55,550 nt of DNA from sequence record PQ202980; one strand, written 5' to 3'. The DNA comes from Escherichia phage CSP1C. Every line of letters begins with the position of its first letter. Within the stretch, counting starts at the first letter, position 1. The position numbers and the translations under genes are program-made. This document shows positions 5,134 through 55,429 of this stretch, piece by piece. The notes beneath the pieces were generated by a model, which searched no databases, was not told where the DNA came from, and was given only the letters and a program-made list of their open reading frames with translations.

Positions 5134-5145
5134 AGGAGAACAACC

Positions 5146-5469: not shown

Positions 5470-5486
5470 AAAATAAGGATTAAACA

Positions 5487-6785: not shown

Positions 6786-6788
6786 TTT

Positions 6789-8025: not shown

Positions 8026-8039
8026 GAGAGGATCTAAAT

Positions 8040-8963: not shown

Positions 8964-8972
8964 GGATAAGAA

Positions 8973-12894: not shown

Positions 12895-12897
12895 TAT

Positions 12898-14066: not shown

Positions 14067-14475
14067 GTTGCCAGGCTGGCAGACACGTTTATTAACCACA
14101 GTAAAGGAGTTGTCATCGACTCCTTTTTCTTGGGGTGAAAATGATTGCTGCACCTTCGCGGCAAAATGTGTTGATGCGCAATACGGAACAAATATCTACG
14201 AACAAGTCGCTGGAAAATATAGTACAGAGCTTGGAAGTAAAAAGTTCACTATTGAAAGAGTTGGAACCGCTTACCTTCCATTGTTATTGGATACATATCT
14301 GAGCGAACGCGTTGACAAGAACTATGCGCAAAGAGGCGATGTGGTTACATTTGAGGGAGCATTGGGCTTAACTGCTGGCATATTATGGACTGGATATGTA
14401 TGGGCTATGGGCCCGAACGGTGTGGAAACATTCCCGCTTAATAAGATCAAAATTACGGATATTTGGAGGGTCTAA
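14059..14475 (+). CDS. minor tail protein, putative NlpC/P60-like (K-like)
   Basis: Start ATG 14059 overlaps upstream stop; product begins MSKLPGWQ and contains WGENDCCTFAAKC with candidate catalytic Cys. The track's longer ORF from 13891 is rejected. Confidence 0.45.
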   Translation: MSKLPGWQTRLLTTVKELSSTPFSWGENDCCTFAAKCVDAQYGTNIYEQVAGKYSTELGSKKFTIERVGTAYLPLLLDTYLSERVDKNYAQRGDVVTFEGALGLTAGILWTGYVWAMGPNGVETFPLNKIKITDIWRV

Positions 14476-17400
14476 TGCCACCAGCAATAATTGGAGCAGC
14501 GATAGCTTTAGGTGCGTCGGCTGCTGCTGCGGCTAGTATTATTTCGGCTACTACCGCTCTCGTTATCGGTATTGCTGCAACTGCGGCAGGTGCTCTTTTA
14601 ACTAAGACACCAAATATGAACTTTGATGCTTACAAGGGGCAGCAAGAGCGTAAACAGGTTCTGCGTGCGGCTACAGCGTCACGCTCTGTTGTATATGGCA
14701 CGACCGTAGCGTCCGGACTATTAGCATTTGCGGAGGAAGAAGCTGGAGATCAAGATGAAGGTGAATGGATGCATCTTGTTGTTGTTCTTGCTAGTCATAA
14801 ATTGGAAGGTATTGAAACAATTTGGTTGGGTGATGACGGAATTGATTGGTTTGGTGAAAACGCTACTTGGGAGTTTCATAACGACCGTCAGACTGTTGAC
14901 CCATTCATGTTAAGACATTGTCCTTCCTGGAAGAATGATATGATTGGCAAGGGTATTGCATGGCTACGTTTAAGCTTAAAGTTTGATGCTGAAAAATTCC
15001 CATCTGGTTTGCCAAACGTCAAGGTGTTGAAAAAGGGACGTAGAGTCTATGACCCACGTTCCGGTCAAACTGTCTTTAGCGATAACGCTGCTCTTGTTAT
15101 TCTTGATTATTTCCGCACGTATTTGAAGCGCAAAGACGAGAATATTAACTGGGACCAATTCAAGGAAGCTGCTAACATCTGCGATGAGTTTGTTACTAAC
15201 GCAGATAACACTACGGAAAGACGCTACCGCATTAACGGTGAGTTTGAAGTGGATGAAGCACCTGCCAAAATCCTTGATGCTATGCTTGAAGCTTGCGGCG
15301 GGGAGCTTACCTATATTGGTGGTAAACACGGTCTGTTAGTTGGTGCTTATTACGGTCCAGCTACCATGACTCTGGATGAAAGCTGCATTGCTGGGGACAT
15401 TAAGATTATCCCTGAGACATCTTATAAAGAGCGCACCAATACCATTACAGGCACATTTGTTGACCCGAAGCAAACATACGCTGAAGCAGATTTCCCTCCA
15501 GTTGTGGTTAAGGAATGGGTGGAAAAAGATGGCGGCGAAATAACGCAAGACATGGATTTCCGCTTTGTTACAAGTGAATATCAAGCTCAACGTCTTGCTA
15601 ATATTATTTTACGTCGTAAGCGTGTTGGTCGAACAATTGAAGTGCCGTGTAACATGAAGGGGTATAAATTCCGCCCGGGCATGTATGTCAACGTGACAAT
15701 TTCAAATATTGGAATGAAAAATGTTGAGATGCGCGTCACTAAATGGTCATTCGATCCTAAAGGTGGGATTAATCTTGTCCTTCGTCAAGACTTCCTGGAA
15801 ATGTGGGACGACGCTATTGGTAAACCAATGGAGCGCCCGGATCTGGTAGACCTTCCGTCTGGTGCTATTGCTCAACCGCAAAACCTTCAGTATCAGGCAT
15901 TGCAGATTAGCGATGTTGTGCAGGGTGTTTTAACGTGGAGCAATATTGGACAGGTAGCGTATAACCGCGTAGCCGTGCGACAGGGAGGTACAACGGTTTG
16001 GACCGCACAAGTCCCTGGCCAAAATGTTCGCGTTACTGGGTTGCTGCGTGGCGCGTATACAGCGCATGTTCAAGCGGTAGCTTATAGCGGAGCAATATCG
16101 CCGGAAGCATATCTGGAATTCAATATTCAAGCACCACCTCCGCCAACTTCTATTGAAGTGCAACAGGGTTACTTTGCAATAACATTGATACCTAAATCCG
16201 CAGATATTGCAAACGTTAGCACGCAATATGATTTCTGGACGTCCGGTGAAACAAGATTGTCTTCCGTATCTACGGATATTGTGGAACGAGAAGCAACTCG
16301 TAAAGGTATGGGTACAACATGGACTTCAGAAGGCTTGAAGAATGACCACACTTATTACTGGTATGTTCGCACTATCAACGCTTTTGGATCGTCTGCATTT
16401 GTAGAAGTAGCTGCATTGTGCTTCACAACCGCTACAGACCTAATGCCACAGATTGATTCTGAGTTCAAGAAGACGGAGACTTATAAAGAGCTTACTGCTG
16501 AAATTACAGGTGTTAAAGACGGTGTTACCCAACTCAGCCAAACTGTAGTAGATACAGAAAAGCGTTTAAGTCAAAGTGTTAGCAACGTTCAGCAGAGTGT
16601 TATTACTTTGGACGGAGTTGTTCAGGATCAGGGTGTTACCATCAATGAGCAAGGGCAACTTATTGATGCACAGGGCCGATTGATTGATACGCAAGGTAAA
16701 ACTATTCAGCAAGTTAGCGCGACTGTACAGGAGACAAGTAAAGCAGTCGTAGATCTGGAAGGTAATGTTAACGCTCAATGGGGTGCTAAAGTACAGGTTG
16801 ACAGTAAAGGGCAAAAATACGTTGCTGGTATCCAGTTGGGTATGGAAGGTTCAGGCGGTGCTGTACAATCTTACTTCATGGTGAGCGCTAACAACTTTGC
16901 TATCTATAACCCGACAAACAGCGTAGCAGAACTGGCATTTGCTGTTAAGAACGGTCAAGTGTTCATGAAGGCTGCGTTTATTGAAAATGGTACTATTGAC
17001 AGCGCTAAAATTTCAAACCAAATTCAGTCAACCAACTACGCTAACAATAGCGCGGGTTGGATGATCAACAAGAACGGTAGCGCTCAGTTTAACAACGTGA
17101 CCATACGGGGTACGGTATACGCTAACAACGGATCTTTTACAGGAACAGTGAACGCAACAAGCGGTAAATTCACTGGTACTGTGGAAGCTACCAGTTTTGT
17201 GGGGGACGTTGCGAATATGTACACAGGATCTGACGTTAGCAGGTTAAAAGATGGCGTACTGGAAAAAACAATTACATACAACGATACATCTAACGCAGCG
17301 TACAGACGACACATCTGCGTTATGGCAAACGTTAAAGGTTTTGGTGGCTGCACAATAGCTATCGGAAGTTCAGAAAAATCCCTTTCTATGAGAGGCGACG

Positions 17401-17543
17401 AGCGCCTTGTTATGCATTCAGCGGCAATAACTACCAAGAGCGTTACAGTTAAAATTAAGGTATCCGCTCAAAATAGTAAGGGGGCTTATATAAATTCACC
17501 GACCGTCATTGTGTCGCGCGGTTCTGGTTCATTCTCAGGATAA
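14475..17543 (+). CDS. central tail fibre / host specificity protein (J-like)
   Basis: About 1020 aa ORF at the end of the tail module; ATG 14475 with SD GGAGGG (track start 14463 is TTG); hydrophobic Ala-rich N-terminus; followed by terminator. Confidence 0.7.
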   Translation: MPPAIIGAAIALGASAAAAASIISATTALVIGIAATAAGALLTKTPNMNFDAYKGQQERKQVLRAATASRSVVYGTTVASGLLAFAEEEAGDQDEGEWMHLVVVLASHKLEGIETIWLGDDGIDWFGENATWEFHNDRQTVDPFMLRHCPSWKNDMIGKGIAWLRLSLKFDAEKFPSGLPNVKVLKKGRRVYDPRSGQTVFSDNAALVILDYFRTYLKRKDENINWDQFKEAANICDEFVTNADNTTERRYRINGEFEVDEAPAKILDAMLEACGGELTYIGGKHGLLVGAYYGPATMTLDESCIAGDIKIIPETSYKERTNTITGTFVDPKQTYAEADFPPVVVKEWVEKDGGEITQDMDFRFVTSEYQAQRLANIILRRKRVGRTIEVPCNMKGYKFRPGMYVNVTISNIGMKNVEMRVTKWSFDPKGGINLVLRQDFLEMWDDAIGKPMERPDLVDLPSGAIAQPQNLQYQALQISDVVQGVLTWSNIGQVAYNRVAVRQGGTTVWTAQVPGQNVRVTGLLRGAYTAHVQAVAYSGAISPEAYLEFNIQAPPPPTSIEVQQGYFAITLIPKSADIANVSTQYDFWTSGETRLSSVSTDIVEREATRKGMGTTWTSEGLKNDHTYYWYVRTINAFGSSAFVEVAALCFTTATDLMPQIDSEFKKTETYKELTAEITGVKDGVTQLSQTVVDTEKRLSQSVSNVQQSVITLDGVVQDQGVTINEQGQLIDAQGRLIDTQGKTIQQVSATVQETSKAVVDLEGNVNAQWGAKVQVDSKGQKYVAGIQLGMEGSGGAVQSYFMVSANNFAIYNPTNSVAELAFAVKNGQVFMKAAFIENGTIDSAKISNQIQSTNYANNSAGWMINKNGSAQFNNVTIRGTVYANNGSFTGTVNATSGKFTGTVEATSFVGDVANMYTGSDVSRLKDGVLEKTITYNDTSNAAYRRHICVMANVKGFGGCTIAIGSSEKSLSMRGDERLVMHSAAITTKSVTVKIKVSAQNSKGAYINSPTVIVSRGSGSFSG

Positions 17544-17547
17544 AAAC

Positions 17548-17578
17548 AACCCCGCTTCGCGCGGGGGTTTCTTTTAGT
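17548..17578. terminator. bidirectional rho-independent terminator between tail fibre and lipoprotein genes
   Basis: CCCCGC ttcgc GCGGGG stem followed by GTTTCTTTT; convergent genes on both sides. Confidence 0.65.
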
Positions 17579-17807
17579 AGTTAGCTACACAGTTTGAAGG
17601 TGAACCAATTCGTCGGTATTCATGATCAATCTCATGGCACCATTGTCCAGTCATTGGAAGCTTTTCGGTATCATAAATTAAAGAACCGTTACCATCACGG
17701 TCTAACGGTTTTGGAATAACGCCGGAATTAGGTTTACCAGTATTCAGACCGTTACCACATGCAGCGAGGGATAAAGTTAATGCAAGCATAATTAAAGCGC
17801 GTTTCAT
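17574..17807 (-). CDS. small lipoprotein, candidate superinfection-exclusion protein
   Basis: ATG 17807 with SD AAGGAG; signal peptide MKRALIMLALTLSLAAC with lipobox LAAC; convergent with the fibre gene. Confidence 0.55.
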   Translation of the reverse strand: MKRALIMLALTLSLAACGNGLNTGKPNSGVIPKPLDRDGNGSLIYDTEKLPMTGQWCHEIDHEYRRIGSPSNCVANY

Positions 17808-17891
17808 TGGGAACTCCTTTTGTGTTGTTGTCAAGGTTCAATTCTAATATACTTGTTGTGTTGAGTAAGTCAAATAAATGTGGGAGATATT

Positions 17892-18062
17892 ATGGCAACT
17901 CGTTTACGTGGTACTTTAGTTGATGGTTTAAATAAACCAATTGTCAACGCTACAGTTGCGCTTTTAGCAAAAGGGAATAGCTTATTGGTATTGTCCGGCA
18001 GTGAAGCTATCTTTAAAACAAGTGCAACCGGAACAACCTGTAGAAGCTCGCGAACATATTAG
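17892..18062 (+). CDS. small ORF with transthyretin-like N-terminal signature (possible gene remnant)
   Basis: 56 aa starting MATRLRGTLVDGLNKPIVNATVAL; SD GGGAGA; another open frame continues to about 18165. Confidence 0.3.
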   Translation: MATRLRGTLVDGLNKPIVNATVALLAKGNSLLVLSGSEAIFKTSATGTTCRSSRTY

Positions 18063-18151
18063 TCCGTGGCCACCAATGATTGATCAGGAAGTTTTGCAGC
18101 CAAAGACCGCTCAAACGGTCCCTCAGAAACCGGAGCAGAAGGTAAAACCAA

Positions 18152-18436
18152 ATGACGAAGAATGAAGGTATTGATAAAGTTGTTGAAGGACTTTCTATTC
18201 GTGCTCATGTTATAGCAGATGAAGGTCATGATCAACTTACTATTATGAAATCCGCATTCAGCGATTTCAAGTCGCTTGGAAACTTAAGCGGGTTAATGAC
18301 TGTGGTGTCGACCGGAAAATTAACCCAGCAGCAAATCAGTCTAGCTCAGCGTATTGCTGTTAAAGTTATTGCGGTACTTGGGATGATTGAAGCTGAAAAG
18401 CCCAGTTCCAAGCAGGATAACGAAAGCGACCTTTAA
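18152..18436 (+). CDS. hypothetical protein
   Basis: 94 aa ORF with plausible SD. Confidence 0.45.
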   Translation: MTKNEGIDKVVEGLSIRAHVIADEGHDQLTIMKSAFSDFKSLGNLSGLMTVVSTGKLTQQQISLAQRIAVKVIAVLGMIEAEKPSSKQDNESDL

Positions 18437-18447
18437 GGAGGTCTACT

Positions 18448-18651
18448 ATGTGTGGTAATACTAACCGTTGCTGTTTAGGCAGTCCTGCAACACAAGCAGG
18501 TATACTTCAGGGGCAATTGGCTCAAGCAGCGTGTAATTGCAAGACGTTTCAACCAGTAGCGCCAACTCCGGTGTTTGTGAATGCTTTTGCACCGCCTGTT
18601 TTCAATACTTTTGGCGTATACCCATACGGTGCTTTCTTTCGTATATTCTAA
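18448..18651 (+). CDS. Cys-rich small protein
   Basis: 67 aa with 5 Cys and an aromatic/Pro-rich C-terminus; strong SD AAGGAGG; followed by terminator. Confidence 0.5.
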   Translation: MCGNTNRCCLGSPATQAGILQGQLAQAACNCKTFQPVAPTPVFVNAFAPPVFNTFGVYPYGAFFRIF

Positions 18652-18655
18652 GAAG

Positions 18656-18683
18656 AGAAAAGGGGCAAACGCCCCTTTCTTTA
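18656..18683. terminator. bidirectional rho-independent terminator
   Basis: AAAGGGGC aaac GCCCCTTT stem with flanking A/T runs between convergent genes. Confidence 0.65.
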
Positions 18684-18962
18684 ACGCTTATGAAAAGCTG
18701 ACAGGATTGCAAGTGTTACAGCACCCAATCCGACGACGGTAGCATAAGTGAGTTGATGTTGAACTTTAACAAAACCGTAATAGGTGCTAGGGATCTCCAC
18801 AATCCCAAACGCCATAGCAAAGCTGGTTCCAAGCAGTGCGACAGCAAGGGCGCGTAATAACGCCCTGCTCATTGCTGTGAAACCTTTCTCGTTACTGTCT
18901 CCGGTCATTATAACCACAATAATAAGAAACAGCGCAACAATTACTAGCAAGTATTCCATCAA
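18681..18962 (-). CDS. small membrane protein (2-3 predicted TM helices)
   Basis: 93 aa, hydrophobic stretches LLVIVALFLIIVVIM and AVALLGTSFAMAFGIV. Confidence 0.5.
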   Translation of the reverse strand: MMEYLLVIVALFLIIVVIMTGDSNEKGFTAMSRALLRALAVALLGTSFAMAFGIVEIPSTYYGFVKVQHQLTYATVVGLGAVTLAILSAFHKR

Positions 18963-19165
18963 CGTCTTCTCCTGTACATGTATTGATCATAAGTAGTTGC
19001 AATAATAGTGACTGGCCAGCAAGCGAGTATACATAGAAGACTTACAATCTTCTCCCAACGTTTCTTATAGGCTAGCGCATAATCATAGTTATTCCAACAA
19101 AAGAAATAAGTCATTGCTGCAATCACAGCACCAATAATGAAATAAATAACTACATATTCATTCAT
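18959..19165 (-). CDS. small membrane protein (2 predicted TM helices)
   Basis: 68 aa, hydrophobic helices, C-terminal RRRR; start overlaps downstream stop. Confidence 0.5.
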   Translation of the reverse strand: MNEYVVIYFIIGAVIAAMTYFFCWNNYDYALAYKKRWEKIVSLLCILACWPVTIIATTYDQYMYRRRR

Positions 19166-19353
19166 TTAGTAAACTCCCATTCTAAAGTATTACGATAGCT
19201 TGATGGTACATAACGCCCAGGGCGTGGATCAAAACTTTTCACTGAAAATTCCAGCGTTCCAGCGCTATATAGTTGTACTTTTTGCCCGTCCCACGGTCCA
19301 CCAATTAGCTTAAAAGTCTGTCTGTAACCTTTTGCTGCTCTAGCCATATTCAC
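19162..19353 (-). CDS. hypothetical protein
   Basis: 63 aa ORF in the same minus-strand run; overlapping start/stop. Confidence 0.4.
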   Translation of the reverse strand: MNMARAAKGYRQTFKLIGGPWDGQKVQLYSAGTLEFSVKSFDPRPGRYVPSSYRNTLEWEFTK

Positions 19354-19390
19354 TCCTTAAAATACCCGCGCGAACGCGGGTATTATTTTA

Positions 19391-19597
19391 TTACGCTTCC
19401 GGTGATTCCGGAGTTGGCTCATCTGGAACAACAATAACGTCGGCTAAAACCTTTAACGCTTCTTGTTGCTCAGCGGTCATATTATTCCAGTAATAGACGT
19501 GAATGTAAACTACTGGTTTGTCACCATGTTGCCACGGTTCGCGACTTACTACATCCACACCTAAATCGCTTGCTACGCTCTTTTCTTTACCAGCCAT
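19391..19597 (-). CDS. hypothetical protein
   Basis: 68 aa ORF; hairpin 19362-19385 downstream. Confidence 0.4.
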   Translation of the reverse strand: MAGKEKSVASDLGVDVVSREPWQHGDKPVVYIHVYYWNNMTAEQQEALKVLADVIVVPDEPTPESPEA

Positions 19598-19629
19598 GCT
19601 AATATACCCCTTTAAGGTTTTACACGCGG

Positions 19630-29115: not shown

Positions 29116-29919
29116 TTACAAGCCGTTCAGGGCTTCCGGTACTGGTACAGGTACGCGACCAGTCACACCATTAAATTTCTTCCAGCGTGCATACTGGGTT
29201 TTAACGGTATCTTCGTTCAAACCATGGCGACCAGCCAGGTTCAGAACATAAGAGATCGGAGCAGGCTGACCCAGCGTAGCGCTAATCTGGTCCATCAGAG
29301 CCCAGGCACGACCGCAGGAAGTTTCCGGTTGTGGACGACGAACACCGTTCTGTTCCGGCATACGATTAGCTTCTTTTTCTTTCTCGCGGAGCTCTTTAGC
29401 GCGTGCTTTTTCCGCTTCTTTTTCTGCCTGTTTTGCAGCACGGATCTTGTCTTTGAAGCCTTTAATAGTAGCTTCCAGACCATCCACCAGACCCTGGGCA
29501 GAAGTTACAGCACCGGACAGGTCTTCACCTTTAGACTTCTTAACGACAGCTTTCAGCTCTTTCAGAGCTTCTTTAATGGTCTTCAGGTTTGCAGATCCCT
29601 GAGTTTCTGCTTCCGTGATTTGTTCAACAGTGCTTTCGTCGGTGACGGTAGCTAAAGAGTTTTTCAGGATTTCAGCAGCGTTAGCAATCGCATTAAATTT
29701 GTTTTCCGCTTCAGTGCGGATTTCAGCTTGTTTCTTTTCAGCGGCAGCTTTTTTCTCTGCTTCTTTTTTCTCTTTTGCTACGCGTGCAGCTTCAGCGGCA
29801 GCGGCTTTCTTAGCTTCTGTATCATTCACAGTAGCTTCTTTCTTTGCAGGTTTAGCAGATTTTGCAGCGGCAGCAGCGGCAGCAGCGGCAGCGGCTTTTT
29901 TATCTTCAATGTTGCTCAT
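29116..29919 (-). CDS. Ala/Lys-rich low-complexity protein with conserved C-terminal domain (histone-like / DNA-binding candidate)
   Basis: ATG 29919 (track start 29928 is GTG); polyAla run plus KKAAAEK repeats; C-terminal TVKTQYARWKKFNG domain shared with ORF 45820..46434. Confidence 0.5.
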   Translation of the reverse strand: MSNIEDKKAAAAAAAAAAAKSAKPAKKEATVNDTEAKKAAAAEAARVAKEKKEAEKKAAAEKKQAEIRTEAENKFNAIANAAEILKNSLATVTDESTVEQITEAETQGSANLKTIKEALKELKAVVKKSKGEDLSGAVTSAQGLVDGLEATIKGFKDKIRAAKQAEKEAEKARAKELREKEKEANRMPEQNGVRRPQPETSCGRAWALMDQISATLGQPAPISYVLNLAGRHGLNEDTVKTQYARWKKFNGVTGRVPVPVPEALNGL

Positions 29920-30046
29920 TCTCTTCACTCCGAATTGTTATGGGTTCGTTTGTTACCAACGGGGTTAAATGTACCAAAGGATTTTGTGACACGCAACCCC
30001 TTATCCGAACATTTTTAAAAATATTTTTGATCAAGCTTAGAACTTA

Positions 30047-30600: not shown

Positions 30601-32577
30601 TTAGAACGGAACGTAATCCGGATCATCTACTTGTACAGGGTTAACCACATTGTTCACCGTTATGCCTTGCGTATTCTGTGAAACAATATCATCCCAGCTC
30701 ACATCATCATTATAGCTTGGACCTTCTGTTGTTCCATCCTGCCCGTATACTTTAACTTGAATAGCTTCGTCGTCCTGTGGAGCTTCAAACTTACCGAAAC
30801 ACGTACCATCATAATCGTAGTTCAATATCTCAGGCCATTTCTTATTGGTATGAACTTTGATGTATTTCGGTGTTTTAAGCATTGCAGCAACATCAAGAGC
30901 TTCTTCAATAGTTTGTGGTAAAGGAAGATGCGTCCTTTTCTTCCACCATGCAACCGCTTTACGACCTGCCCAGTCACCATGAAGTAGAGCTACCCATTCG
31001 CTGAATATTTTACTACCGCAATAATAAGTCACCTTCATTGTTGGAGGTTTGGAGCTGTCATTGCGTTTAGTGTGCTTCGCATAAGTAACATGCGTAACTT
31101 TAAAGTCTTCAACTACAGGAATGTCCTGCTTAATCAATGCTTCGGTACTTGCTGCCTTTTTAAGTTTGGTTTGGAACTTAAACTCATGACCGCAAAATCC
31201 TTCTTTAACATAATCCGTTCCACGTAGTCTGAATCCCTTCAAATATAATTGTTGAACTTGTTCCTGTGTAACGCTGTCCATAGGAATTGGTGCAAAGCCA
31301 CCGCAATAGCGAGCAGATGCATGATTATACGACCCGCACACATCGCATTCTTTAACCGGAGCAGTACCAGCACCTTTTTCGCCCGGGCGCTTGGGTTTAA
31401 CAGGGTCGTTAATAGGTCCCAAACGGCGCGTATTACCGCTGAAATCCAGTACAAGGCAGTTCTGCTTAGGACTTGCTGCAATAGCTTGCAAGCGACCTTC
31501 CTGCGTGGAAAGATCAAAGCCCTCCGCATATACCGGACGCGTACCGCGACCCAACATCTGAACCCATAGCACCGCCGAGGCAGTTGGGCGAAGCATGATA
31601 ATCAGATCAAGCATTGGATGGTCGAAACCTGTGGTTAAGACGTTGTTGTTTGTCAGCGCTCGAAACTCTCCACGCTTGAACTTTTCAATAATTTCATCAC
31701 GCTCTTTTGCATCAAGCTTTGAGTGAATACATCCGCAACTAATACCCATATCGTTCAGCATATCACACGCATCTTTAGCGTGTTCAATACCAGAACAAAA
31801 TATAAGCCAGCTTTGACGGTCTTCACCACATTCAATGGCTTCCTCAAGTGCGCGGAGTGTTGCGTCGTCGCGGTTTACCGCACTTTGTAGCTCACTCTGG
31901 ATAAACTCACCGCCGCGTTTCCCTACACCATTGAGGTCTAGTTCCATCTTTGTACGCTTTGGCACAACCGGAAGCAAATAGCCTTGCTCCAGGAACCAGT
32001 TAAAGGCTTCAGGGGTAGTTGCATCAAACGTTACTTTATCAAATAAAGCATCATCGTCTTTGTTTTCCTTAACAATTGAACCGTAACCCAGTCGGTAAGG
32101 TGTAGCAGTAAGACCGATAATTTTTAAATACGGGTTAACTTCACGCAATGCTGCAAAGAACTTCTTATACATTGTTGCATCACGCGGACTAATAAGGTGC
32201 GCTTCATCCACAAAGATTAGATCAACCTTGCCGAACTTTTTAGGATGCTTAGCAACAGATGCAATCCCCGCAAATGTGATAAGATTATAGACTTCTTTAC
32301 GCTTCAAACCTGCGCTGTAAATACCTGCTGGCGCTTCAGGCCAGACTTTCATTAATTTATCATAGTTTTGTGCAATTAACTCTTTGACGTGAGTTAACAT
32401 CATTACGCGCTGGTTTGGATACCATTTATAAAGCAGATCGAGGAACCCCGCGATAACGAGCGATTTTCCTGTCCCTGTTGGTAACAGGATCAAAGGGTTC
32501 CCCGCGTTACCCTTTTCAGCATCAAAATAGCGGAATACGCTATAAACTGCTTCCTGTTGATAATCGCGGAGCTGCAT
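30601..32577 (-). CDS. SF2 DEAH-type DNA helicase
   Basis: Walker A PTGTGKSL and DEAH box FVDEAHL; ATG 32577 (track start is TTG); C-terminal Cys-rich region. Confidence 0.8.
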   Translation of the reverse strand: MQLRDYQQEAVYSVFRYFDAEKGNAGNPLILLPTGTGKSLVIAGFLDLLYKWYPNQRVMMLTHVKELIAQNYDKLMKVWPEAPAGIYSAGLKRKEVYNLITFAGIASVAKHPKKFGKVDLIFVDEAHLISPRDATMYKKFFAALREVNPYLKIIGLTATPYRLGYGSIVKENKDDDALFDKVTFDATTPEAFNWFLEQGYLLPVVPKRTKMELDLNGVGKRGGEFIQSELQSAVNRDDATLRALEEAIECGEDRQSWLIFCSGIEHAKDACDMLNDMGISCGCIHSKLDAKERDEIIEKFKRGEFRALTNNNVLTTGFDHPMLDLIIMLRPTASAVLWVQMLGRGTRPVYAEGFDLSTQEGRLQAIAASPKQNCLVLDFSGNTRRLGPINDPVKPKRPGEKGAGTAPVKECDVCGSYNHASARYCGGFAPIPMDSVTQEQVQQLYLKGFRLRGTDYVKEGFCGHEFKFQTKLKKAASTEALIKQDIPVVEDFKVTHVTYAKHTKRNDSSKPPTMKVTYYCGSKIFSEWVALLHGDWAGRKAVAWWKKRTHLPLPQTIEEALDVAAMLKTPKYIKVHTNKKWPEILNYDYDGTCFGKFEAPQDDEAIQVKVYGQDGTTEGPSYNDDVSWDDIVSQNTQGITVNNVVNPVQVDDPDYVPF

Positions 32578-32579
32578 AA

Positions 32580-33488
32580 TCAATCTTTCCCGTAATAGTT
32601 AGCCACTTGATAGTTTTGACAACCAACTTTTTGACCCTGCGTATCTACTGCAACGGAATGGAAATTGCAATACCATGTTCCATCATCTTTTGGCTCAAGA
32701 AATTGACATGTGCGACAGTTTACTTCCGGCATAGTTTTACGCCAGCACAATGAGGCGTGATCGCACCATTTGCATTCGAAGAAGGTAGAGTCTTTGAATG
32801 CACGGTCAGGAATATCCGTAGCAATAGCAATCTGCACACCACGATCAATATACATGTCCGCAGTGACCGGATCAAATGGAATAATTTCTGCGTAAACTTC
32901 ATCATCGTTCTTGTTTACAGCAAGATATAACGCTGCGCCAAGTCCTAGCTTTCGCATGTACACGTTCATCTGTACATAGTGCTCAGGTTTAGCTTCTTTG
33001 ACACCTTTAGCTTTCAGTTTCTTGAAAGACTTATCGTTGTGGGTCTTCATTTCAGTAAGCACAGGCATCCCAGGCTGAACGTCCGGACAACCTATAACCA
33101 CACCATCGCAGGAACCGCCAAAGTGTCCGCCAGCTTCGCTAATACGGAACTGGTGTCCGTTTTCATCCTGCTGGTAGACCTGCATACCTGCCGCAAGAAG
33201 CATAGCAATGAAACGCGCTTCTTCCAGATGTCCGCGGTTAAATAGGCGGAGCTGGCGTCCATCGAACTCTTTACGAGTAGCCCAGCGATACCCGTAGAAC
33301 AGCTTGCGAGCACATTGTTGTCCAATAAGGGAAGCACCTAAGTGACTGCGGTTGCCGCTTTCGGGGCGATATGCGTCTTCAATTGTGGGAATGACTACGC
33401 CAAGATATTTACGGTAAGTCCCACCCTGATCTTTTTGCACACCGTCATTGATTGCTTGAAGTGTTTTTTCTGCAATATAAATAGCCAT
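32580..33488 (-). CDS. PD-(D/E)xK nuclease with C-terminal Cys cluster (Cas4/RecB-like exonuclease)
   Basis: DGVV...LTEMKTH D/E-K arrangement plus four C-terminal Cys (CKWCDHASLC, CRTC). Confidence 0.55.
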   Translation of the reverse strand: MAIYIAEKTLQAINDGVQKDQGGTYRKYLGVVIPTIEDAYRPESGNRSHLGASLIGQQCARKLFYGYRWATRKEFDGRQLRLFNRGHLEEARFIAMLLAAGMQVYQQDENGHQFRISEAGGHFGGSCDGVVIGCPDVQPGMPVLTEMKTHNDKSFKKLKAKGVKEAKPEHYVQMNVYMRKLGLGAALYLAVNKNDDEVYAEIIPFDPVTADMYIDRGVQIAIATDIPDRAFKDSTFFECKWCDHASLCWRKTMPEVNCRTCQFLEPKDDGTWYCNFHSVAVDTQGQKVGCQNYQVANYYGKD

Positions 33489-33552: not shown

Positions 33553-34422
33553 TTACTGCTGCCACGGCGGGACTGCTGCTTGTGCCGGATGCGGTTCAGC
33601 TTGCTGCTGTGGCTGCGCTTGCTGCTGCGGTGCTGCTGCCTGACCCGGCTGTGCTACCTGCTGCGCCCATGGCTGCTGAGCTGCTTCCGGCGCTACTGGC
33701 TGTTGTACCGGAGCTTGCTGAACTGGCTGCTGCGGCGCTGCGTTTTGAGCAGGATTATCCCACGGCTGCGGTGCGGCATTCTGCCACGGTTGAGCTGCTG
33801 CGCCCTGCTGCGGTGCTGGTTGCTGAACAGGCTGCTGTTGCTGTACCGGAGCTTGCTGCTGTACAGGTGCTTGCTGTTGCTGAGCAAACGGGTTAGCTGC
33901 TGGCTGCTGCGGCGCTGCGCCCGGGAAAGTTGGCTGCTGTGCTGGCGCACCTGCACCGAACGGGTTAGCTACTGCTGGAGCGCCCATTGATGGAGCCTCT
34001 GCTGCTTTTTCTGCATACTTAACCGGATCGTTGATGTTAGCGTAACCGTTCGGCTCGTTGCTGTCTTCATAACCTTCCTGAGAACGAACTTTCAGACGCA
34101 GGTTCAGCGGAATGTTATGCAGTTGAGCAGGAGTATCCCAGCGAATTACACCTACTGCGTGGGAAAGTGCGCCCAGTTGCTCATAAGCGATACGCACAGT
34201 ATCTTCATTGTCGTTGATGACGTTGTAGCGAGCGAAGATTTTACGACCTTTAGCAAAACCGTCAATGATGCTAAACGTTACCTGGATCGCCATACCGCCA
34301 TTTTTGGTCGGTTTAAATTCAGATGCTTCAATTACTGCTTTATACCAACCTTTCGGCAATGCGCCGTAAGAAGGTGCTTGATAGCTGCTCGCGTCAAAGT
34401 GGAAATTAGTTGGCATAGTCAT
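33553..34422 (-). CDS. SSB-like (DUF669-type) protein with Q/P/A-rich C-terminal tail
   Basis: Globular N-terminal ~150 aa, then ~140 aa low-complexity tail with repeated PW motifs; adjacent and coupled to Sak4-like ATPase. Confidence 0.5.
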   Translation of the reverse strand: MTMPTNFHFDASSYQAPSYGALPKGWYKAVIEASEFKPTKNGGMAIQVTFSIIDGFAKGRKIFARYNVINDNEDTVRIAYEQLGALSHAVGVIRWDTPAQLHNIPLNLRLKVRSQEGYEDSNEPNGYANINDPVKYAEKAAEAPSMGAPAVANPFGAGAPAQQPTFPGAAPQQPAANPFAQQQQAPVQQQAPVQQQQPVQQPAPQQGAAAQPWQNAAPQPWDNPAQNAAPQQPVQQAPVQQPVAPEAAQQPWAQQVAQPGQAAAPQQQAQPQQQAEPHPAQAAVPPWQQ

Positions 34423-40793: not shown

Positions 40794-41018
40794 ATGGTCA
40801 TGCTGAATAAAGTATATAGCACAATGGGCGCGGATTATAAAGTTGTACGTCACCCGCGTACTGGCAAATTTGAAGCATATATCCGTCCAATGGGTGAAGG
40901 TTGGATGTATTACGGTACTTATGACGACGCTGAGCAAGCTTATGAAGAAGCGGAAAGTGCAGCGGAAGCATCCGAAATTATGGCAAGGTACGACGTCGAT
41001 GATTACTATCTCAACTAA
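40794..41018 (+). CDS. AP2-like DNA-binding domain protein
   Basis: YKVVRHPRTGKFEAYIRPMGEGWMYYGTYDDAEQA matches the AP2 pattern; SD GGAGG; lone + strand gene inside minus block. Confidence 0.5.
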   Translation: MVMLNKVYSTMGADYKVVRHPRTGKFEAYIRPMGEGWMYYGTYDDAEQAYEEAESAAEASEIMARYDVDDYYLN

Positions 41019-41050
41019 CAATAAAGGGCCGAAAGGCCCTTTATTTATTT
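41018..41050. terminator. bidirectional rho-independent terminator
   Basis: AAGGGCC gaaa GGCCCTT stem with flanking T-tracts on both strands; convergent genes. Confidence 0.7.
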
Positions 41051-43381
41051 GCTTAAGTCTTTGAAAACACTCTCAATTGACTCGTCTATATACCATCCCA
41101 ACCCCCTGAAATTACGCTTCAATGCATCCTCACGCGTAACCGGAACAAGCGCGCCCATGTCTACAAGTTGTTTGATAGTGAGGTCTGTTGCAGTACCTGC
41201 TCCCATCCTGTGATTCTTGAATGCTGCTAACCCGTAGGTTCTGCGTGTGATAGTTGCCTTCGGAATAATACCGTCAACTCGCAGCTCCTTACGATCACAT
41301 GCAATTTTACCGCCAAGATAATCTTTGCAGACCTGACAGATAGCCTTCACACGCGTTTCATCATCACCGCCAATAGTACCTTTTTCCCATGCATTGATCA
41401 TGATGTCCTGTCCATGCGTAACAAAATCTACCGCCCATTGCATGTGATTGGGCTGAACGACAGGATTGATCCAGTTTTCCCCAACTGCTAACAGGGATGC
41501 AAGACGCAGAGCTTTAAGGTGCGCACGGTTCCACGGCTGACGGATAGCTTCGTCTTTAGTTGCGTTAATGTGTTCATCACACAGCAAGTTAAACTCCCGT
41601 TCAATCCTTTCCGCTTCAGGGCTTAACTGGACGGTAACGGTCTGGAACTTCGCCATTGTCACTAACGTGTGGTTAACAAGATGGCACACCATGTCCTTTA
41701 ATTGCTGTGGCATTGTGATTTCAGGATTTTCGTTTGCAGGAACACGATCCCCTTCATATTGCACAATGTGGAAACGGGACAAGAAACCGTCTTCCATCAT
41801 TTCACGTGTTAACGCTTCAAAGAATGTGTCCGGTGTTGTTTCGCCCAGTATGCTGAACGCCACCCCTTCCATTGTCTTGGTATTATTAGCCTTATCAGAA
41901 TACCCAATACCGCCAACAACATCCATCGCACCAGATTTTTGATACACATCTGTAATAGTTTGCTTCAGGGTATAGTTTGCAGTGCCAGGTTGAGCCGTTG
42001 CCATACCTTTAATGGTTTTACCAAACTCACCGTTAATATTCACAAACGAAGTATGATCCGCAAAACTTTTACGCAAGGCAGGACCGGAAGCATAGTTAGT
42101 CATGTCTACAAATTCATGCACTTGCGGTAATTGCTCGCCTACTTGCTTGCAGATATAGCTGGGCCCGGCGTGAAGCATTTCTTTGCCCACACCTGATCGG
42201 GCAATGAGCACAAAGTAACCGTTCAGCCCTGTGTTGGTGATAGTATTCCACACCTTGCCGCATACGCCTGACAAGAATGCTAACGATGCAGTGATTGCAA
42301 TTTCTTTCACCGGACGCTGCGATGCTTTGTAGATATACTTCGCAAGCTCACCAGCAAGTCCCGGCGGCCATTCAATAGCTGTTGCATCAATGGACGTGCT
42401 TTCTGCAACTACTATTTCACCGGACGGGCTGACTGTGGTTACAGGCATTTCCGTTACCTGCTGCATTGCACTGTGTGCGGCTTGCATACGAGCAGCGTAA
42501 TCCCGCGCCAGCGCCGCTACGTTTTCCTGGGCAATGCGCTCACGCTCCATGCGACCGCGGCACATACGCAAACAACGGTCAATATGAACATTGTTCTTAT
42601 TAGCCTTCTCACGTTTACCCAGTGCACTGTAACGGAACAGACGACGACATTGCTCATTACTTTCTGTGTAGAATGCATACATAGAGATAAGAGCAAGGTC
42701 TGCTTCAGACTGGGACGGGAATCCCATTTCAACCCATTCACCATTGAATAGGCGTGCATACTTATCGCCGTTGTCTGCTTCAAGCGCACGCTGGTGAATG
42801 GTTGCATCGTCTTCTACCGGATCTTTTTCTACCAGTTCAATTTCATATGTCTTGCGCTGAAGATCAATTTCATTCACAAGCATAGTAAGGTAATGATCAC
42901 GTTCGGCAACTGGTTTATTGTAGACAGGATTGCCCGTGCAGATAATAAAACGCTCCTGACTATAAACCTCGACACCATCACGTCGGCGACCTTTACCGAT
43001 CTTCCCTCTTAACCACAGGTGGACGCCCAAGCCTGAGCGACTTACTTCGGTGTAAGTATCGAACGCGGTCATGATCTGTTCGAAGCGGCGCAACTGTTCC
43101 GGCGTCGTGTGCTTCTTGGGATCAGGTTCATTGGTAGCGTTCTTCACATCCAGGTCGATGCAGGTGAACGGGTCTTGCGCAGTAAGCACGAAGCCAATAT
43201 AAGGTTTATTGAAATGAGCGGCGCAACCTTTGGCAGCTTCAAACGTCATAAGCATATCCGGATCGGTAACGTCCGCCGCCATCAAACGTCCAATATCGTT
43301 GTCCCATACAAGCGGCTTTTTATCCGCATCGGCGACCGCCCATTGGGGGAAAGCTTTAATTTCAGCGGGAAACAGTTCCAT
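41045..43381 (-). CDS. DNA primase (primase-polymerase-type N-terminal domain) with C-terminal P-loop NTPase domain
   Basis: 778 aa; size and position in replication module; putative P-loop around ARSGVGKE. Domain assignment by eye only. Confidence 0.55.
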   Translation of the reverse strand: MELFPAEIKAFPQWAVADADKKPLVWDNDIGRLMAADVTDPDMLMTFEAAKGCAAHFNKPYIGFVLTAQDPFTCIDLDVKNATNEPDPKKHTTPEQLRRFEQIMTAFDTYTEVSRSGLGVHLWLRGKIGKGRRRDGVEVYSQERFIICTGNPVYNKPVAERDHYLTMLVNEIDLQRKTYEIELVEKDPVEDDATIHQRALEADNGDKYARLFNGEWVEMGFPSQSEADLALISMYAFYTESNEQCRRLFRYSALGKREKANKNNVHIDRCLRMCRGRMERERIAQENVAALARDYAARMQAAHSAMQQVTEMPVTTVSPSGEIVVAESTSIDATAIEWPPGLAGELAKYIYKASQRPVKEIAITASLAFLSGVCGKVWNTITNTGLNGYFVLIARSGVGKEMLHAGPSYICKQVGEQLPQVHEFVDMTNYASGPALRKSFADHTSFVNINGEFGKTIKGMATAQPGTANYTLKQTITDVYQKSGAMDVVGGIGYSDKANNTKTMEGVAFSILGETTPDTFFEALTREMMEDGFLSRFHIVQYEGDRVPANENPEITMPQQLKDMVCHLVNHTLVTMAKFQTVTVQLSPEAERIEREFNLLCDEHINATKDEAIRQPWNRAHLKALRLASLLAVGENWINPVVQPNHMQWAVDFVTHGQDIMINAWEKGTIGGDDETRVKAICQVCKDYLGGKIACDRKELRVDGIIPKATITRRTYGLAAFKNHRMGAGTATDLTIKQLVDMGALVPVTREDALKRNFRGLGWYIDESIESVFKDLSK

Positions 43382-43387
43382 ATTTAA

Positions 43388-43591
43388 TTAAGACCTCCGA
43401 CGCTTATCGCCTTGCATCTTTTCCAGGACGGGTTCTGCTAATGAACGTTTATAGATGTACACGCTACCGATTTTAATAGCGCCGGGAATGCATTCGCGCA
43501 TTCTGGAGAGCTTAAATTTTGAAATACCGAACCGGTTTTCAATTTCGGTAGTTGTTATATAGTTGTGATTAAATTCTTCGACGTGGGTCAT
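43388..43591 (-). CDS. HTH DNA-binding protein (excisionase/AlpA-like HTH_17)
   Basis: ITTTEIENRFGISKFKLSRM...IKIGSVYIYKRSL matches the Xis/AlpA-type helix-turn-helix pattern; SD AAGGAGG. Confidence 0.55.
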   Translation of the reverse strand: MTHVEEFNHNYITTTEIENRFGISKFKLSRMRECIPGAIKIGSVYIYKRSLAEPVLEKMQGDKRRRS

Positions 43592-43652: not shown

Positions 43653-44399
43653 TTACAGGATATGGGGGCAATAATATTTATCCATAACAAACTGAAAAAC
43701 TTCTTCAGGTGTGCGGTCATTACGAAGTTCAATCATATGATTGTCCAGCCATTGCAAACTCTCCTCAGCCTTATCTCTATTATTAAAGTGCAATAGCGCT
43801 GAAGGTGTATCGCCATGAGGTATAACTTCAAGTCTAAATACACCTGTTTCCAGATGAGTTATGTTGCAAGTCGGCCAAACGCCACGGTTTTCCCATATAG
43901 AAGGCGCATCCTCAAACCTGCATGAGCTATACCATTTATTGCGAAGAGATGTGATCTCCTTACTTGTTAACGGGGCACCCTTAACCCTTTCATGCTCCTC
44001 CAGCCAGGCTTTAAATTTTGGGTTAGGTTTGCGCCCGGGCTTCCCACCTTTCGCCTTTGCGCTTTCTTTAAACGCTTGCTCATACGGGTCTGATCCCTTG
44101 CCCATGTGGTAATTGAATTTGCCCGTATAGCTGCGAAGCTCTTTGGCATCCAGCTCACGCCCCAACTTATCGCTCACCCATGTAAGGAAAGCCTCCCGCT
44201 CTGCATCCAGCTTACCAGCTTTCGGTCTTACAGATTTTTTAACTGGCTGCTCCACATCCTCGTTGAAGTAATCTTCTACCATAGCAAGCGCCTGTGATTT
44301 GGTTGGTGCGCCACGCAACCGTGAGCACGCTTGCACAACCCAAGCCGCGAAGCACATATCTTTAACCACAGTGTTGGAGGTAATAATTTCTTCACTCAT
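43653..44399 (-). CDS. hypothetical protein
   Basis: About 248 aa from ATG 44399 with SD AGGTGGA. Confidence 0.45.
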   Translation of the reverse strand: MSEEIITSNTVVKDMCFAAWVVQACSRLRGAPTKSQALAMVEDYFNEDVEQPVKKSVRPKAGKLDAEREAFLTWVSDKLGRELDAKELRSYTGKFNYHMGKGSDPYEQAFKESAKAKGGKPGRKPNPKFKAWLEEHERVKGAPLTSKEITSLRNKWYSSCRFEDAPSIWENRGVWPTCNITHLETGVFRLEVIPHGDTPSALLHFNNRDKAEESLQWLDNHMIELRNDRTPEEVFQFVMDKYYCPHIL

Positions 44400-44441
44400 A
44401 ATCCACCTATACGCGTAGAAAGAAAGGTAATCATATAACAA

Positions 44442-45105
44442 AGTTTTTGTAATCGCAAAACCTTCGCAAAACTTTGTCTTTCCTGCATTATATTAAACGA
44501 TAGTGCTAGTGGCCAGCATAGTGGCATCACCTCTTATAGTGCGCCGTTACTGGCTTCGCTATAGTGTGCCACTATACGCTCACTATACACTAATAACTAA
44601 TTTTATTTTGTTTAGTGGTAATAAAGTTTTGGGTTTTTGGGGGGGACCCCTATATATCCCGGGAAAAACAAAGAAATAGTAGTAGTAGTGAAAAACATAG
44701 TGAAATGCCACTATCCTCACTATCACTACCAATTTAATGTAATTCATGGGGGTGTCTATGTACCAAAAACCTAAAACTTTCAGTCAACAGGCTAAAAACG
44801 GATAGAAACTAAAAGTTAATAAGTAATAACATAAATATATATAAAATAAGGATTTATTAGTAATGTATATAGTACCTATTGATATTATTTGAATGTTTTT
44901 GGGTCATTGTTAAAAAGTCCCAAAACTCGCAAAACCTGAACGGATGCAGATCAAAAATGAGAAATCAAGTGCTTTTGAGGGAAATTTATTGAACTATTGT
45001 GATCGGAAGGTATATCAAGCTATAATGCGCTTAATCGCGGGATATTGGAGGAGGACTTTATTGCGCGGTTAACCGGACCAGTAGGAGGGCTGGCCCGGAA
45101 GTAGT
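44442..45105. promoter_or_regulatory. AT-rich repeat-dense non-coding region (candidate operator cluster / origin)
   Basis: About 660 bp without credible ORF; at least 6 CACTATA/TATAGTG heptamers, 3 copies of TCGCAAAAC, (AGT)4, a G7 run and a TATAAT-like box. Confidence 0.5.
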
Positions 45106-45432
45106 TTAGAGTTGTACAGGTGTGAAGTGGGCTAGCGTATCGTCGGACATAATACCCGACAGTTTTTCGCTTATCCAGTCGGACCAAATGCTATCCGGTT
45201 CCTGGCGGTGCACAAACCAGATTTCGGATGTGCCTTCTTTGCGCATCGGTTGCACTTCTGCAAGGAACTTGTCCTGCATAAGGCGGGTGAAGCAGACGCT
45301 GGTCATTGGAACCGGCTTTTCGTCTTTATTGTAATAAGGGAATAATATTTTATTTCCGAAGTCGGCAACTTCATAAACCGTTCCTTTACGAAGGCCTCTG
45401 ATGTCAGTGTAAGAGCGAATGAACTTTTTCAT
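45106..45432 (-). CDS. hypothetical protein
   Basis: 108 aa ORF. Confidence 0.45.
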   Translation of the reverse strand: MKKFIRSYTDIRGLRKGTVYEVADFGNKILFPYYNKDEKPVPMTSVCFTRLMQDKFLAEVQPMRKEGTSEIWFVHRQEPDSIWSDWISEKLSGIMSDDTLAHFTPVQL

Positions 45433-54851: not shown

Positions 54852-54871
54852 CAATAAGAAGGGGAGCTTCC

Positions 54872-55429
54872 ATGAACGGGGCAAGTCAAGAGCAATATGA
54901 TCGTGACTGGACGAACTATATCCAGTATGCAAATAGCTTGTCCGCTGACGAGATGGCAATACGTGACAAAGTTGTTGCTGAGTATATGTTCGACTACAAT
55001 TGGACTAACGCTTGCATGAGATGCGGGTTCAATGCTATGTTTGCACAGGAGCTTGGCCAACGCTTTGCCACGGACTGTTACGTTCGATGGAAGCTCAAGG
55101 AGATTGAAAGATCCCGTGTTCAACGTACTTCTGAGCAAGCTAACATTGAAGCAGACCTAGAGCGTCAGCATATCATTGAAGCATTAAAACGTGAAGCTCA
55201 TTATACAGGACCGGGATCTTCTCAAGCTGCTAGAGTAGCCGCATTGGGCAAGCTTGCACAAATTTATGATTTGGATGCTCCCAAGAAGGCTAAAATTGAT
55301 GTTACTAACAGAGGCGGCGTAATGATAGTCCCTGCTGTAGCAAATATTGACGAATGGGAAAAAACTGCATCCGAGTCTCAACAACGACTAGTTAAAGAGA
55401 CTGAAGATGGAGCTAAACCGACAACCTGA
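54872..55429 (+). CDS. terS: terminase small subunit
   Basis: 185 aa ORF with SD AAGGGGAG directly upstream of the terL N-terminus; assignment positional. Confidence 0.5.
   Translation: MNGASQEQYDRDWTNYIQYANSLSADEMAIRDKVVAEYMFDYNWTNACMRCGFNAMFAQELGQRFATDCYVRWKLKEIERSRVQRTSEQANIEADLERQHIIEALKREAHYTGPGSSQAARVAALGKLAQIYDLDAPKKAKIDVTNRGGVMIVPAVANIDEWEKTASESQQRLVKETEDGAKPTT

Follow-up and report, generated by a model that had tools for sequence, protein, structure and literature searches.

The gap that separates an early gene from the replication operon of Escherichia phage CSP1C (record PQ202980) raises the question of what a non-coding stretch so crowded with short repeats is for. We analysed 55,550 nucleotides of this genome, referred to here as the window, in which a preliminary description made from the sequence alone had marked an AT-rich, gene-free region at 44442-45105 packed with short repeats and had likened it to replication origins or dense operator clusters. 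Our analysis shows that the gap holds two separate repeat systems, class 1 and class 2, which behave differently across related phages. Because each kind of repeat changes together with a different neighbouring phage protein, class 1 with an orphan protein of 248 amino acids (aa) and class 2 with the C-terminal half of a 778-aa primase-helicase, we consider it probable, on comparative sequence evidence, that the gap is a phage replication origin joined to the control region of the replication operon. The repeats, their enrichment, their layout and two independent patterns of covariation are observed directly. The gap and the three genes of the operon downstream of it are as follows.

44400-45105: non-coding gap, bounded upstream by the gene of a 108-aa early protein and downstream by the replication operon, with minus-strand genes on either side
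43653-44399, minus strand: gene of the 248-aa orphan protein (phrog_27223), proposed to bind the class 1 repeats (iterons)
43388-43591, minus strand: gene of a 67-aa protein, of Xis/AlpA helix-turn-helix type by appearance, with a basic tail (GDKRRRS)
41045-43381, minus strand: gene of the 778-aa primase-helicase, the C-terminal half of which (about 41045-42480) is the proposed reader of the class 2 sites

Repeat counts were compared with those in 2000 dinucleotide-preserving shuffles of the gap region itself. CACTAT, the class 1 core, occurs 9 times in the gap (shuffle mean 0.39, maximum 4), the class 2 words CAAAAC and CAAAAAC together also 9 times (mean 0.68, maximum 5) and TCGCAAAAC 3 times (mean 0.00), and in each case 0/2000 shuffles reached the observed count. 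The preliminary description had named motif counts no higher than those of shuffled sequence as the outcome that would speak against it; since no shuffle reached the counts of any of the three words, its reading survives this comparison. The nine copies of CACTAT/ATAGTG lie inside 44500-44723 (224 bp), out of only 24 in the window, a total equal to the chance expectation for the 55.5 kb overall, and the exact copies of TCGCAAAAC at 44453, 44464 and 44927 are the only ones in the window, in agreement with an earlier count of three for this motif. The heptamer CACTATA/TATAGTG, credited with at least six copies, is present in exact form only four times (44535, 44560, 44570 and 44581), and it is the hexamer that reaches nine. 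The (AGT)4 run (44678-44689), the T5G7AC4 tract (44634-44650) and the TATAAT box (45021-45026 on the plus strand and 44492-44487 on the minus strand) are all present as described, and of the two copies reported for GTTTTGGGT the one at 44626 is exact and the second, at 44895, is GTTTTTGGGT. What had been overlooked is that the repeats belong to two systems and that the right-hand 165 bp of the gap form a distinct, conserved element.

Class 2 sites have the form C[C/G]CAAAAC or CAAAAAC and number about 11, arranged in four sets between 44443 and 44935, the last two of which enclose an AT-rich block.

44443-44472: class 2 set i, GTTTTTG (minus strand, 44443), TCGCAAAAC (plus strand, 44453) and TCGCAAAAC (plus strand, 44464)
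44626-44639, with a tract reaching 44650: class 2 set ii, GTTTTG and GTTTTTG as an inverted pair, joined to the G7AC4 tract
44763-44799, plus strand: class 2 set iii, CCAAAAAC, CTAAAAC and CTAAAAAC (44792), at the left edge of the AT-rich block
44800-44893: AT-rich block, a candidate DNA-unwinding element, conserved in all relatives
44895-44935: class 2 set iv, GTTTTTGGG (minus strand, 44895), CCCAAAAC (plus strand, 44919) and TCGCAAAAC (plus strand, 44927), at the right edge of the AT-rich block

Three class 2 sites, all on the plus strand, stand to the left of the AT-rich block and three to the right, of which one is inverted, and nowhere in the 55,550 bases is GC lower over 100 bp than at 44801-44900 (16% GC). 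At the positions of set iv Seurat, KS_A8 and L012 carry GTTTAT / TATAAAC / CATAAAC, and L011 (a metagenomic locus), L013 and L018 carry words of the TAAAATT type. Set i sits in the leader of the operon, downstream of the -10 box and ahead of the 248-aa gene's ribosome-binding site, a zone whose equivalent in GottfriedDienst holds five tandem AAGTTTTG units. Set ii lies between the two clusters of class 1 sites, inside a cassette that is exchanged among relatives, and its layout is kept there with each phage's own primase-type word (GTTTATA x2 in KS_A8, GAATTTTAC x2 in L011), so that the word follows the distant primase type and not the type of the surrounding cassette. The more distant Hafnia phage yong3, whose primase is 64% identical, has the same layout, with an AT-rich block that is flanked by words of the TATAAAC type and lies upstream of genes for an Xis-like protein, a variable protein and the primase.

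The covariation of the class 2 word with the C-terminal half of the primase-helicase is our strongest result. The first 300 residues of the enzyme are 91-99% identical in all relatives; between types, identity falls to 66-79% for residues 300-650 and to 41-48% for the last ~130, and on this basis three types are defined, which go with the following words.

Window type primase-helicase (window, SA80RD and GottfriedDienst): class 2 word CAAAAC
Seurat type primase-helicase (Seurat, CAjan and L012): class 2 word TATAAAC
L011 type primase-helicase (L011, L013 and L018): class 2 word TAAAATT

The C-terminal type matches the class 2 word in 8/8 recombinant combinations, the primase types occurring with CACTAT, CCCTAT, CCCCTA or GGAATAAT class 1 contexts. 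The covarying segment is encoded 2-3.4 kb from the class 2 sites; the cassette genes in between assort independently of it, and the conserved N-terminus of the primase also lies between. From the CACTAT iterons and TATAAAC class 2 words of KS_A8 a C-terminus of the Seurat type was predicted before the data were fetched, and the last 132 alignment columns of the KS_A8 protein proved to be 100% identical to Seurat and 44% identical to the window. These patterns also bear on whether the repeats might be non-functional recombination debris left at a mosaic junction. The gap is indeed a hot spot of mosaicism with sharp breaks in homology, yet within each relative all copies share one word, the layout is conserved while the words differ, and the words match a protein encoded 2-3 kb away. 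As all copies change together under a conserved layout, selection for a common reader is required, and we regard the debris explanation as highly improbable.

In a genome-wide test 200-nt tiles of the window were compared with the complete genomes of GottfriedDienst, Seurat and KS_A8, and near-identity to GottfriedDienst combined with divergence from Seurat and KS_A8 alike was found in only four segments. By far the largest is the 1.7-kb C-terminal half of the primase-helicase (40901-42600), which is also the sole one in a replication protein. The remaining three belong to a gene of the queuosine cluster and to the dUTPase gene with its spacer, and none is a plausible reader of the sites. An annotated 'putative DNA-binding protein' near 38.2 kb was considered as a reader and rejected, being essentially identical in all four phages (one conservative substitution), and the differences in that neighbourhood fall in the dUTPase gene and spacer. 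The 67-aa protein was likewise rejected as a reader of class 1 or class 2, given that its types follow neither and that it is present in phages without class 1; it is conserved in every relative examined, with homologues in GottfriedDienst, yong3, L018 and Vid5, and its only Pfam match is weak (AbiEi_4, E = 0.048).

The primase-helicase consists of an NrS-1-type primase-polymerase, a helix-bundle domain (PF22763, E = 1.5e-6), an AAA+ (DUF3987) helicase and a C-terminal domain, and the family of such ~780-aa proteins has >1500 database members. An AlphaFold model built from 63 homologues has a mean predicted local distance difference test score (pLDDT) of 89.6, and residues 698-777 are predicted to form a compact helix/strand unit. 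The N-terminus matches NrS-1 both by sequence (PDB 6K9A, 6A9W, 7RR3) and by Foldseek (1e-10). Foldseek matches to MCM/ORC AAA+ proteins are also found at ~1e-6 over 350-550 columns, the covered query residues being unspecified, and the nearest solved full-length relative by sequence is SaPI5 PriRep (7OLA, E = 1.7e-11), which is matched in the primase domain only. The hint of a winged helix in the C-terminal domain consists only of the predicted helix-strand pattern and the MCM/ORC fold matches, and a word-indexed search with this domain alone returned one protein.

Class 1 sites share the core CACTAT, with TGCCACTAT(A) as the fuller form, and lie in two clusters and in both orientations. In total there are ~12 non-palindromic sites with a core of 6-9 bp, mixed orientation and spacings of 9-25 bp.

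44500-44586: class 1 cluster A, minus-strand sites at 44500, 44506 (variant CACTAG), 44518, 44536 and 44561, plus-strand sites at 44570 and 44581
44685-44729: class 1 cluster B, minus-strand sites at 44685 (variant CACTAC) and 44697, plus-strand sites at 44709, 44718 and 44724 (variant CACTAC)

The (AGT)4 run precedes and overlaps the first site of cluster B, and an (AGT)n run is also found in KS_A8, L011 and L012. CACTAT iterons are present in all relatives whose 248-aa homologue is 51-98% identical to that of the window (WildeMaa, SA80RD, SA126VB, Dru_SM1, KS_A8 and L011). Seurat, CAjan and L013, in which the protein is 44-45% identical, have ~9-12 copies of ACCCTATA at equivalent places, and L012 (48% identical) has TACCCCTA at the equivalent place. 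GottfriedDienst, ECP2304 and L018 carry neither the 248-aa gene nor class 1 iterons and have GGAATAAT repeats and unrelated small proteins instead. Three iteron words therefore pair with three types of the protein, and where the gene is absent the iterons are absent too. Since every copy shifts to the same new word with the layout kept, a shared reader of class 1 is required. Within the 248-aa family residues 7-46 are nearly invariant and alignment residues ~50-110 split the CACTAT group from the CCCTAT and CCCCTA groups.

The class 1 iterons and the 248-aa gene are exchanged as one sharply bounded cassette. L011 and L013 are 95% identical on both sides of a divergent stretch that starts precisely at the first iteron cluster and stops where the gene ends, and the homology of the window to Seurat, KS_A8 and GottfriedDienst breaks at 44764-44767, just left of class 2 set iii. 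A G/C-rich near-palindrome, GGGGT..TACC at 44746-44765, stands at this boundary in most types (GGGGTATACCCC is its equivalent in KS_A8) and may be recognised by the 67-aa Xis-like protein or signal a recombination boundary. Some relatives have HNH homing-endonuclease genes inserted beside the gap or between the 67-aa and primase genes, and these may drive local mosaicism; the insertions are as follows.

SA80RD (L002): HNH homing-endonuclease insertion at 3258-3782
Dru_SM1 (L009): HNH homing-endonuclease insertion at 3516-4040
L012: HNH homing-endonuclease insertions at 4064-4597 and 1724-2188

The 248-aa family is very narrow, with 11 clusters among 5.8 billion proteins, and a profile search of 1.84 billion representatives gave only 2 family members and one marginal match. 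The protein has no match in Pfam, helix-turn-helix families included, and gives only chance colicin matches against PDB by sequence. Its AlphaFold model (mean pLDDT 70.7) finds by Foldseek against viral models its own family only and no fold relative, and neither by sequence nor by fold does the protein match any Rep, O or known regulator family. An AP2-like C-terminal domain, an idea that arose from three predicted strands and a helix and from a weak AP2 match of the GottfriedDienst replacement protein, is not supported (hhalign probability 0.2%). The replacement proteins of GottfriedDienst (93 aa, with the weak AP2 match) and L018 (195 aa) have no detectable similarity to each other. The third repeat word, GGAATAAT with an optional leading T, occurs in 5-9 copies that flank the core AT-rich block on both sides in the four carriers listed below. 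Dru_SM1 carries these repeats despite having the 248-aa gene, and no candidate reader common to all four carriers was found.

GottfriedDienst (L007): (T)GGAATAAT repeats at 4562-5391
ECP2304 (L004): (T)GGAATAAT repeats at 1-330
L018: (T)GGAATAAT repeats at 1372-2703
Dru_SM1 (L009): (T)GGAATAAT repeats at 1348-2500

The class 1 sites also touch a promoter.

44487-44515, minus strand: sigma-70-like promoter toward the replication operon, TGGCCA, 17-nt spacer and TATAAT, recognised solely by its match to the consensus (10/12 positions)

This is the only good sigma-70-like promoter that faces the operon, and the annotation of SA80RD also marks a promoter at this site. The -35 box and spacer of the promoter are overlapped by class 1 sites, whose position is therefore operator-like and makes autoregulation plausible. 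The same overlap belongs to the main rival explanation, in which the gap is purely a transcriptional control region between early and replication (middle) genes, both kinds of repeat are operators and the origin lies elsewhere. Class 2 set i in the leader fits this explanation, as do the promoter and terminator that the annotators of SA80RD placed in the gap and the presence in the operon of a small helix-turn-helix-like protein (67 aa), and the exchange of a protein gene and its sites as a cassette is typical of a repressor-operator immunity module. However, ~12 class 1 and 11 class 2 sites of mixed orientation over 500 bp are unlike two or three palindromic operators, and class 2 sites bracket the most AT-rich 100 bp, which lie 300-450 bp upstream of the promoter. 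Furthermore, what covaries with class 2 is a primase-helicase and not a regulator, and the 248-aa protein, as noted above, resembles no known regulator. We therefore consider purely transcriptional control rather unlikely, though deserving of more weight than any other alternative to an origin joined to a control region. A T7-like promoter reading of CACTATA, which resembles the core of T7-type promoters, was rejected because copies of the word crowd together at a single locus and face both ways; nor was a gene for a phage RNA polymerase seen in the inspected part of the genome.

The right-hand part of the gap is an element separate from the repeats, and the 165 bp from 44940 to 45105 are conserved in nearly all relatives whatever their cassette.

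44997-45098, plus strand: conserved right-hand block, a promoter-like site and then two hairpins
44997-45026, plus strand: promoter-like site, TTGTGA, 18-nt spacer and TATAAT, present in the window and in Seurat
45031-45072 and 45073-45098, plus strand: the two hairpins, with GGAGG in the loops (CCUCC on the minus strand)
45106-45432, minus strand: gene of the 108-aa early protein, upstream neighbour of the gap

The block could be a small RNA, an unusual early-gene terminator or a protein-binding element. If a small non-coding RNA, made for example from the plus-strand promoter-like site, were the main product of the gap, the repeats would be secondary. The promoter-like site and two hairpins are conserved across all types, the stems vary in sequence with phage type and still pair, and the plus strand of the window folds at -31.2 kcal/mol (z = -3.1). 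Against this, the other phage types give weak z-scores (+0.98 to -2.3), the types align too poorly with one another for covariation to be counted formally, there is no U-tract terminator and no Rfam 15 family reaches its gathering score anywhere in the window. The element moreover spans only 45027-45098, which leaves the repeats at 44443-44935 unexplained, and we judge a small RNA an improbable main product.

Iterated protein-binding sites can also be held by pac or cos sites, and the gap might accordingly be a packaging signal bound by the small terminase subunit. In line with such a signal, the ECP2304 record begins ~50 bp to the left of its homologue of window position 44764. The small terminase gene, however, lies ~10 kb away (54871-55428, from the CSP1 annotation mapped onto the window), whereas pac and cos sites are normally in or beside it, and the deposited records of relatives begin at many different places. 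According to one study, a set of phage assemblies that included Seuratvirus closed as circles and PhageTerm gave no reoriented assembly (bioRxiv 10.64898/2026.05.19.726188). The repeats furthermore covary with replication proteins and not with the terminase, so that there is very little likelihood of a packaging role. The ECP2304 record (L004, 63,590 bp) starts inside the gap and is matched by the query at two places, which points to terminal duplication, or to an assembly broken at the repeats, and not to a true end of the genome.

The limits and composition of the gap were established as follows. The 248-aa gene starts at ATG 44399 and not at TTG 44441, so that the real gap is 44400-45105, slightly wider than had been reported. 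Annotations and PHROG agree that it is gene-free: the deposited annotations of 5 close relatives leave it empty or give it only open reading frames (ORFs) of 42-44 aa, and five gap ORFs of 42-58 aa had no convincing match among the PHROG families (best E-value 0.025). The description of the gap as AT-rich also holds, its GC content being 36.4% against ~44-45% for the window. Cumulative G-C has its global minimum for the window at 44597, within the gap, and the sign of the skew flips there although genes remain on the minus strand to ~47.2 kb; this is weak evidence of an origin because phage skew mostly follows transcription. Neither DnaA boxes (TTATNCACA, with up to one mismatch) nor the IHF consensus were found in 44400-45110, which fits an origin independent of host initiators.

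In a 1.9-kb stretch around the gap the window shares 99.9% identity with Cronobacter phage CSP1 and 94.7-97.1% with several Escherichia phages that belong to Seuratvirus, a genus of virulent siphoviruses in the Queuovirinae whose genomes measure ~60 kb. No E. coli genome carries the region, which is therefore not a prophage or host element. The window corresponds to positions 24302-60222 plus 1-19629 of the CSP1 record KY982929.1; relative to CSP1 it is without ~4.7 kb that hold the large terminase, portal and scaffold genes and part of the capsid gene, and it stops exactly where the large terminase gene begins. The hosts given in the records of near-identical phages are Cronobacter, Aeromonas and Escherichia, and some of these labels may therefore be unreliable. 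Elsewhere in the window, the densest other hexamer cluster (GCAGCA/CAGCAG at 33553-34422, minus strand) falls in a GC-rich 1-kb stretch with 55.5% GC and is not regulatory, since it encodes the Q/P/A-rich low-complexity C-terminal tail of a 289-aa protein. A tandem GCAGCGGCA at 29864-29892 encodes an alanine run near the N-terminus of a 270-aa lysine-/alanine-rich protein (29116-29928, minus strand). The 660-aa ORF at 30601-32583 on the minus strand appears to be the Queuovirinae superfamily II helicase, of which a 658-aa homologue, Heli22 from Bas22, is reported to trigger Retron-Eco11 (PMC12746101).

By analogy the gap seems to fit a known class, the iteron origins of self-loading primase-helicases, and asks for no new principle. 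The Rep origins of staphylococcal pathogenicity islands (SaPIs) contain 6-12 penta- or hexanucleotide iterons round a central AT-rich region, with at least two per side in opposite orientations, and the reader of these iterons is a winged helix at the C-terminus of a self-loading helicase (PMC9371898). As in SaPIs, there are multiple repeats of ~6 nt (~11 class 2 sites here, compared with the 6-12 of SaPIs) on both sides of a central AT-rich region and in opposite orientations, the repeat word varies among related elements along with the C-terminal part of the helicase, no host initiator sites are seen and, as in SaPI5, a primase is fused to the helicase. In contrast to SaPIs, the primase is of the NrS-1 primase-polymerase type, the C-terminal winged helix is unconfirmed, extra class 2 sets lie outside the core and there is a second repeat system with its own orphan protein. 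The alpha protein of phage P4, ~777 aa, likewise joins primase, helicase and C-terminal origin-binding domain in one polypeptide, and the P4 origin has short direct and inverted repeats, a second cluster (crr) at a distance and independence of host DnaA. Its primase is of a different type, it has no exchangeable cassette of accessory protein and iterons, and Cnr regulates alpha by protein-protein contact; the likeness to P4 (alpha, ori, crr) is one of general description.

Lambdoid ori/O and the iteron plasmids (RepA, pi, RepE) similarly have multiple initiator-site repeats beside an AT-rich region, exchange the initiator gene together with its sites and are autoregulated through sites on their own promoter. 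The repeats of lambda, P1, F, pSC101 and RK2 are however direct, of 17-22 bp and bound by a winged-helix Rep or O initiator, whereas the cores here have 6-9 bp and mixed orientation, the DnaA boxes or IHF sites of Rep/O origins are missing from 44400-45110, and lambda ori lies inside the O gene. With the deep-sea vent phage NrS-1 the phage shares the N-terminal primase-polymerase and helix-bundle domains, a likeness of enzyme and not of DNA element, and we know of no NrS-1 origin with iterated sites. Exchange of a gene and its sites with sharp boundaries, as between L011 and L013 and at 44764-44767, recalls the lambdoid immunity cassette; the differences are the ~12 non-palindromic sites in two clusters, the co-directional flanking genes and the lack of a helix-turn-helix match in the 248-aa protein. 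The departures from the known class are thus the position upstream of the helicase gene, the four sets of sites and the second exchangeable iteron system with its orphan protein.

As regards how such an origin might work, its core would be at ~44763-44935, where a ~100-bp AT-rich unwinding element would be flanked left and right by class 2 sites, some in each orientation. The C-terminal part of the 778-aa primase-helicase that the phage itself encodes would read these sites, and the helicase would load itself at the core, melt the AT-rich block and prime synthesis without host DnaA. Class 2 sets i (44443-44472) and ii (44626-44639) could serve to build a larger complex and to damp expression of the enzyme's own operon. 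To the left of 44764-44767 would lie an accessory cassette made up of the two TGCCACTAT iteron clusters and the adjacent 248-aa orphan gene, whose product would bind the class 1 iterons sequence-specifically, regulate the overlapped promoter and assist or license assembly at the adjacent core origin. The invariant N-terminus of this protein could contact a conserved partner, for example the primase N-terminus. We put forward only tentatively the further step of a two-key origin, in which the C-terminus of the primase-helicase reads one word and the orphan 248-aa protein reads a second and licenses or gates the origin. The two specificity systems may reassort freely among co-circulating virulent phages, at least 3 x 4 types having been seen, and among these the 248-aa protein can be replaced by unrelated small proteins with GGAATAAT repeats.

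A number of points weigh against an origin of this kind. Three small unrelated segments share the genome-wide tile pattern of the primase segment, and the class 2 reader is not assignable to the last domain of the primase-helicase alone because the whole C-terminal half, helicase included, swaps as a block. A profile of that last domain finds nothing in PDB or Pfam, so its winged helix is unconfirmed, and the 248-aa protein is without a recognisable DNA-binding fold in Pfam, fold and profile comparisons. The covariation of class 1 with the 248-aa protein is confounded by adjacency and could be linkage; class 1 could also be purely transcriptional, since in immunity regions, too, regulator and sites are exchanged jointly. 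Unlike in SaPIs and P4, the helicase gene is downstream of the sites: the SaPI origin immediately follows its helicase gene, and here the sites precede the gene by 1.4-3.4 kb with the 67-aa and 248-aa genes between. The skew flip is backed by only ~2 kb and, with phage skew mostly driven by transcription, counts for little. In the literature we found no description of replication origins in Queuovirinae and no mention of an origin, repeats or genome termini for Seuratvirus. DNA binding, melting, origin firing and autoregulation are what we infer from the patterns described above. Both elements of the preliminary description, origin and operator cluster, are nevertheless supported by the comparative evidence as regards the sites, and it is their function that we infer.

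For the Queuovirinae, phages with 7-deazaguanine DNA of which several are in the BASEL reference collection, the analysis provides a candidate origin at base level, a likely initiator and predicted pairs of protein segment and DNA word. The recombinants amount to a natural swap experiment, in which one helicase type is found with different cassettes and the reverse. If the gap is an origin as we propose, self-loading-helicase origins, known from the satellites SaPI and P4, would extend to the ~780-aa primase-helicase family of virulent phages, and a role would be assigned to the 248-aa orphan protein family. Should the two-key origin also be true, it would point to selection for origin incompatibility, or for escape from hijacking or interference, in strictly lytic phages, and the 248-aa protein would represent a novel type of protein that binds DNA sequence-specifically, with residues ~50-110 choosing between CACTAT and CCCTAT. 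A defined pair of origin and specificity would be useful for phage engineering and for understanding exclusion between co-infecting relatives.

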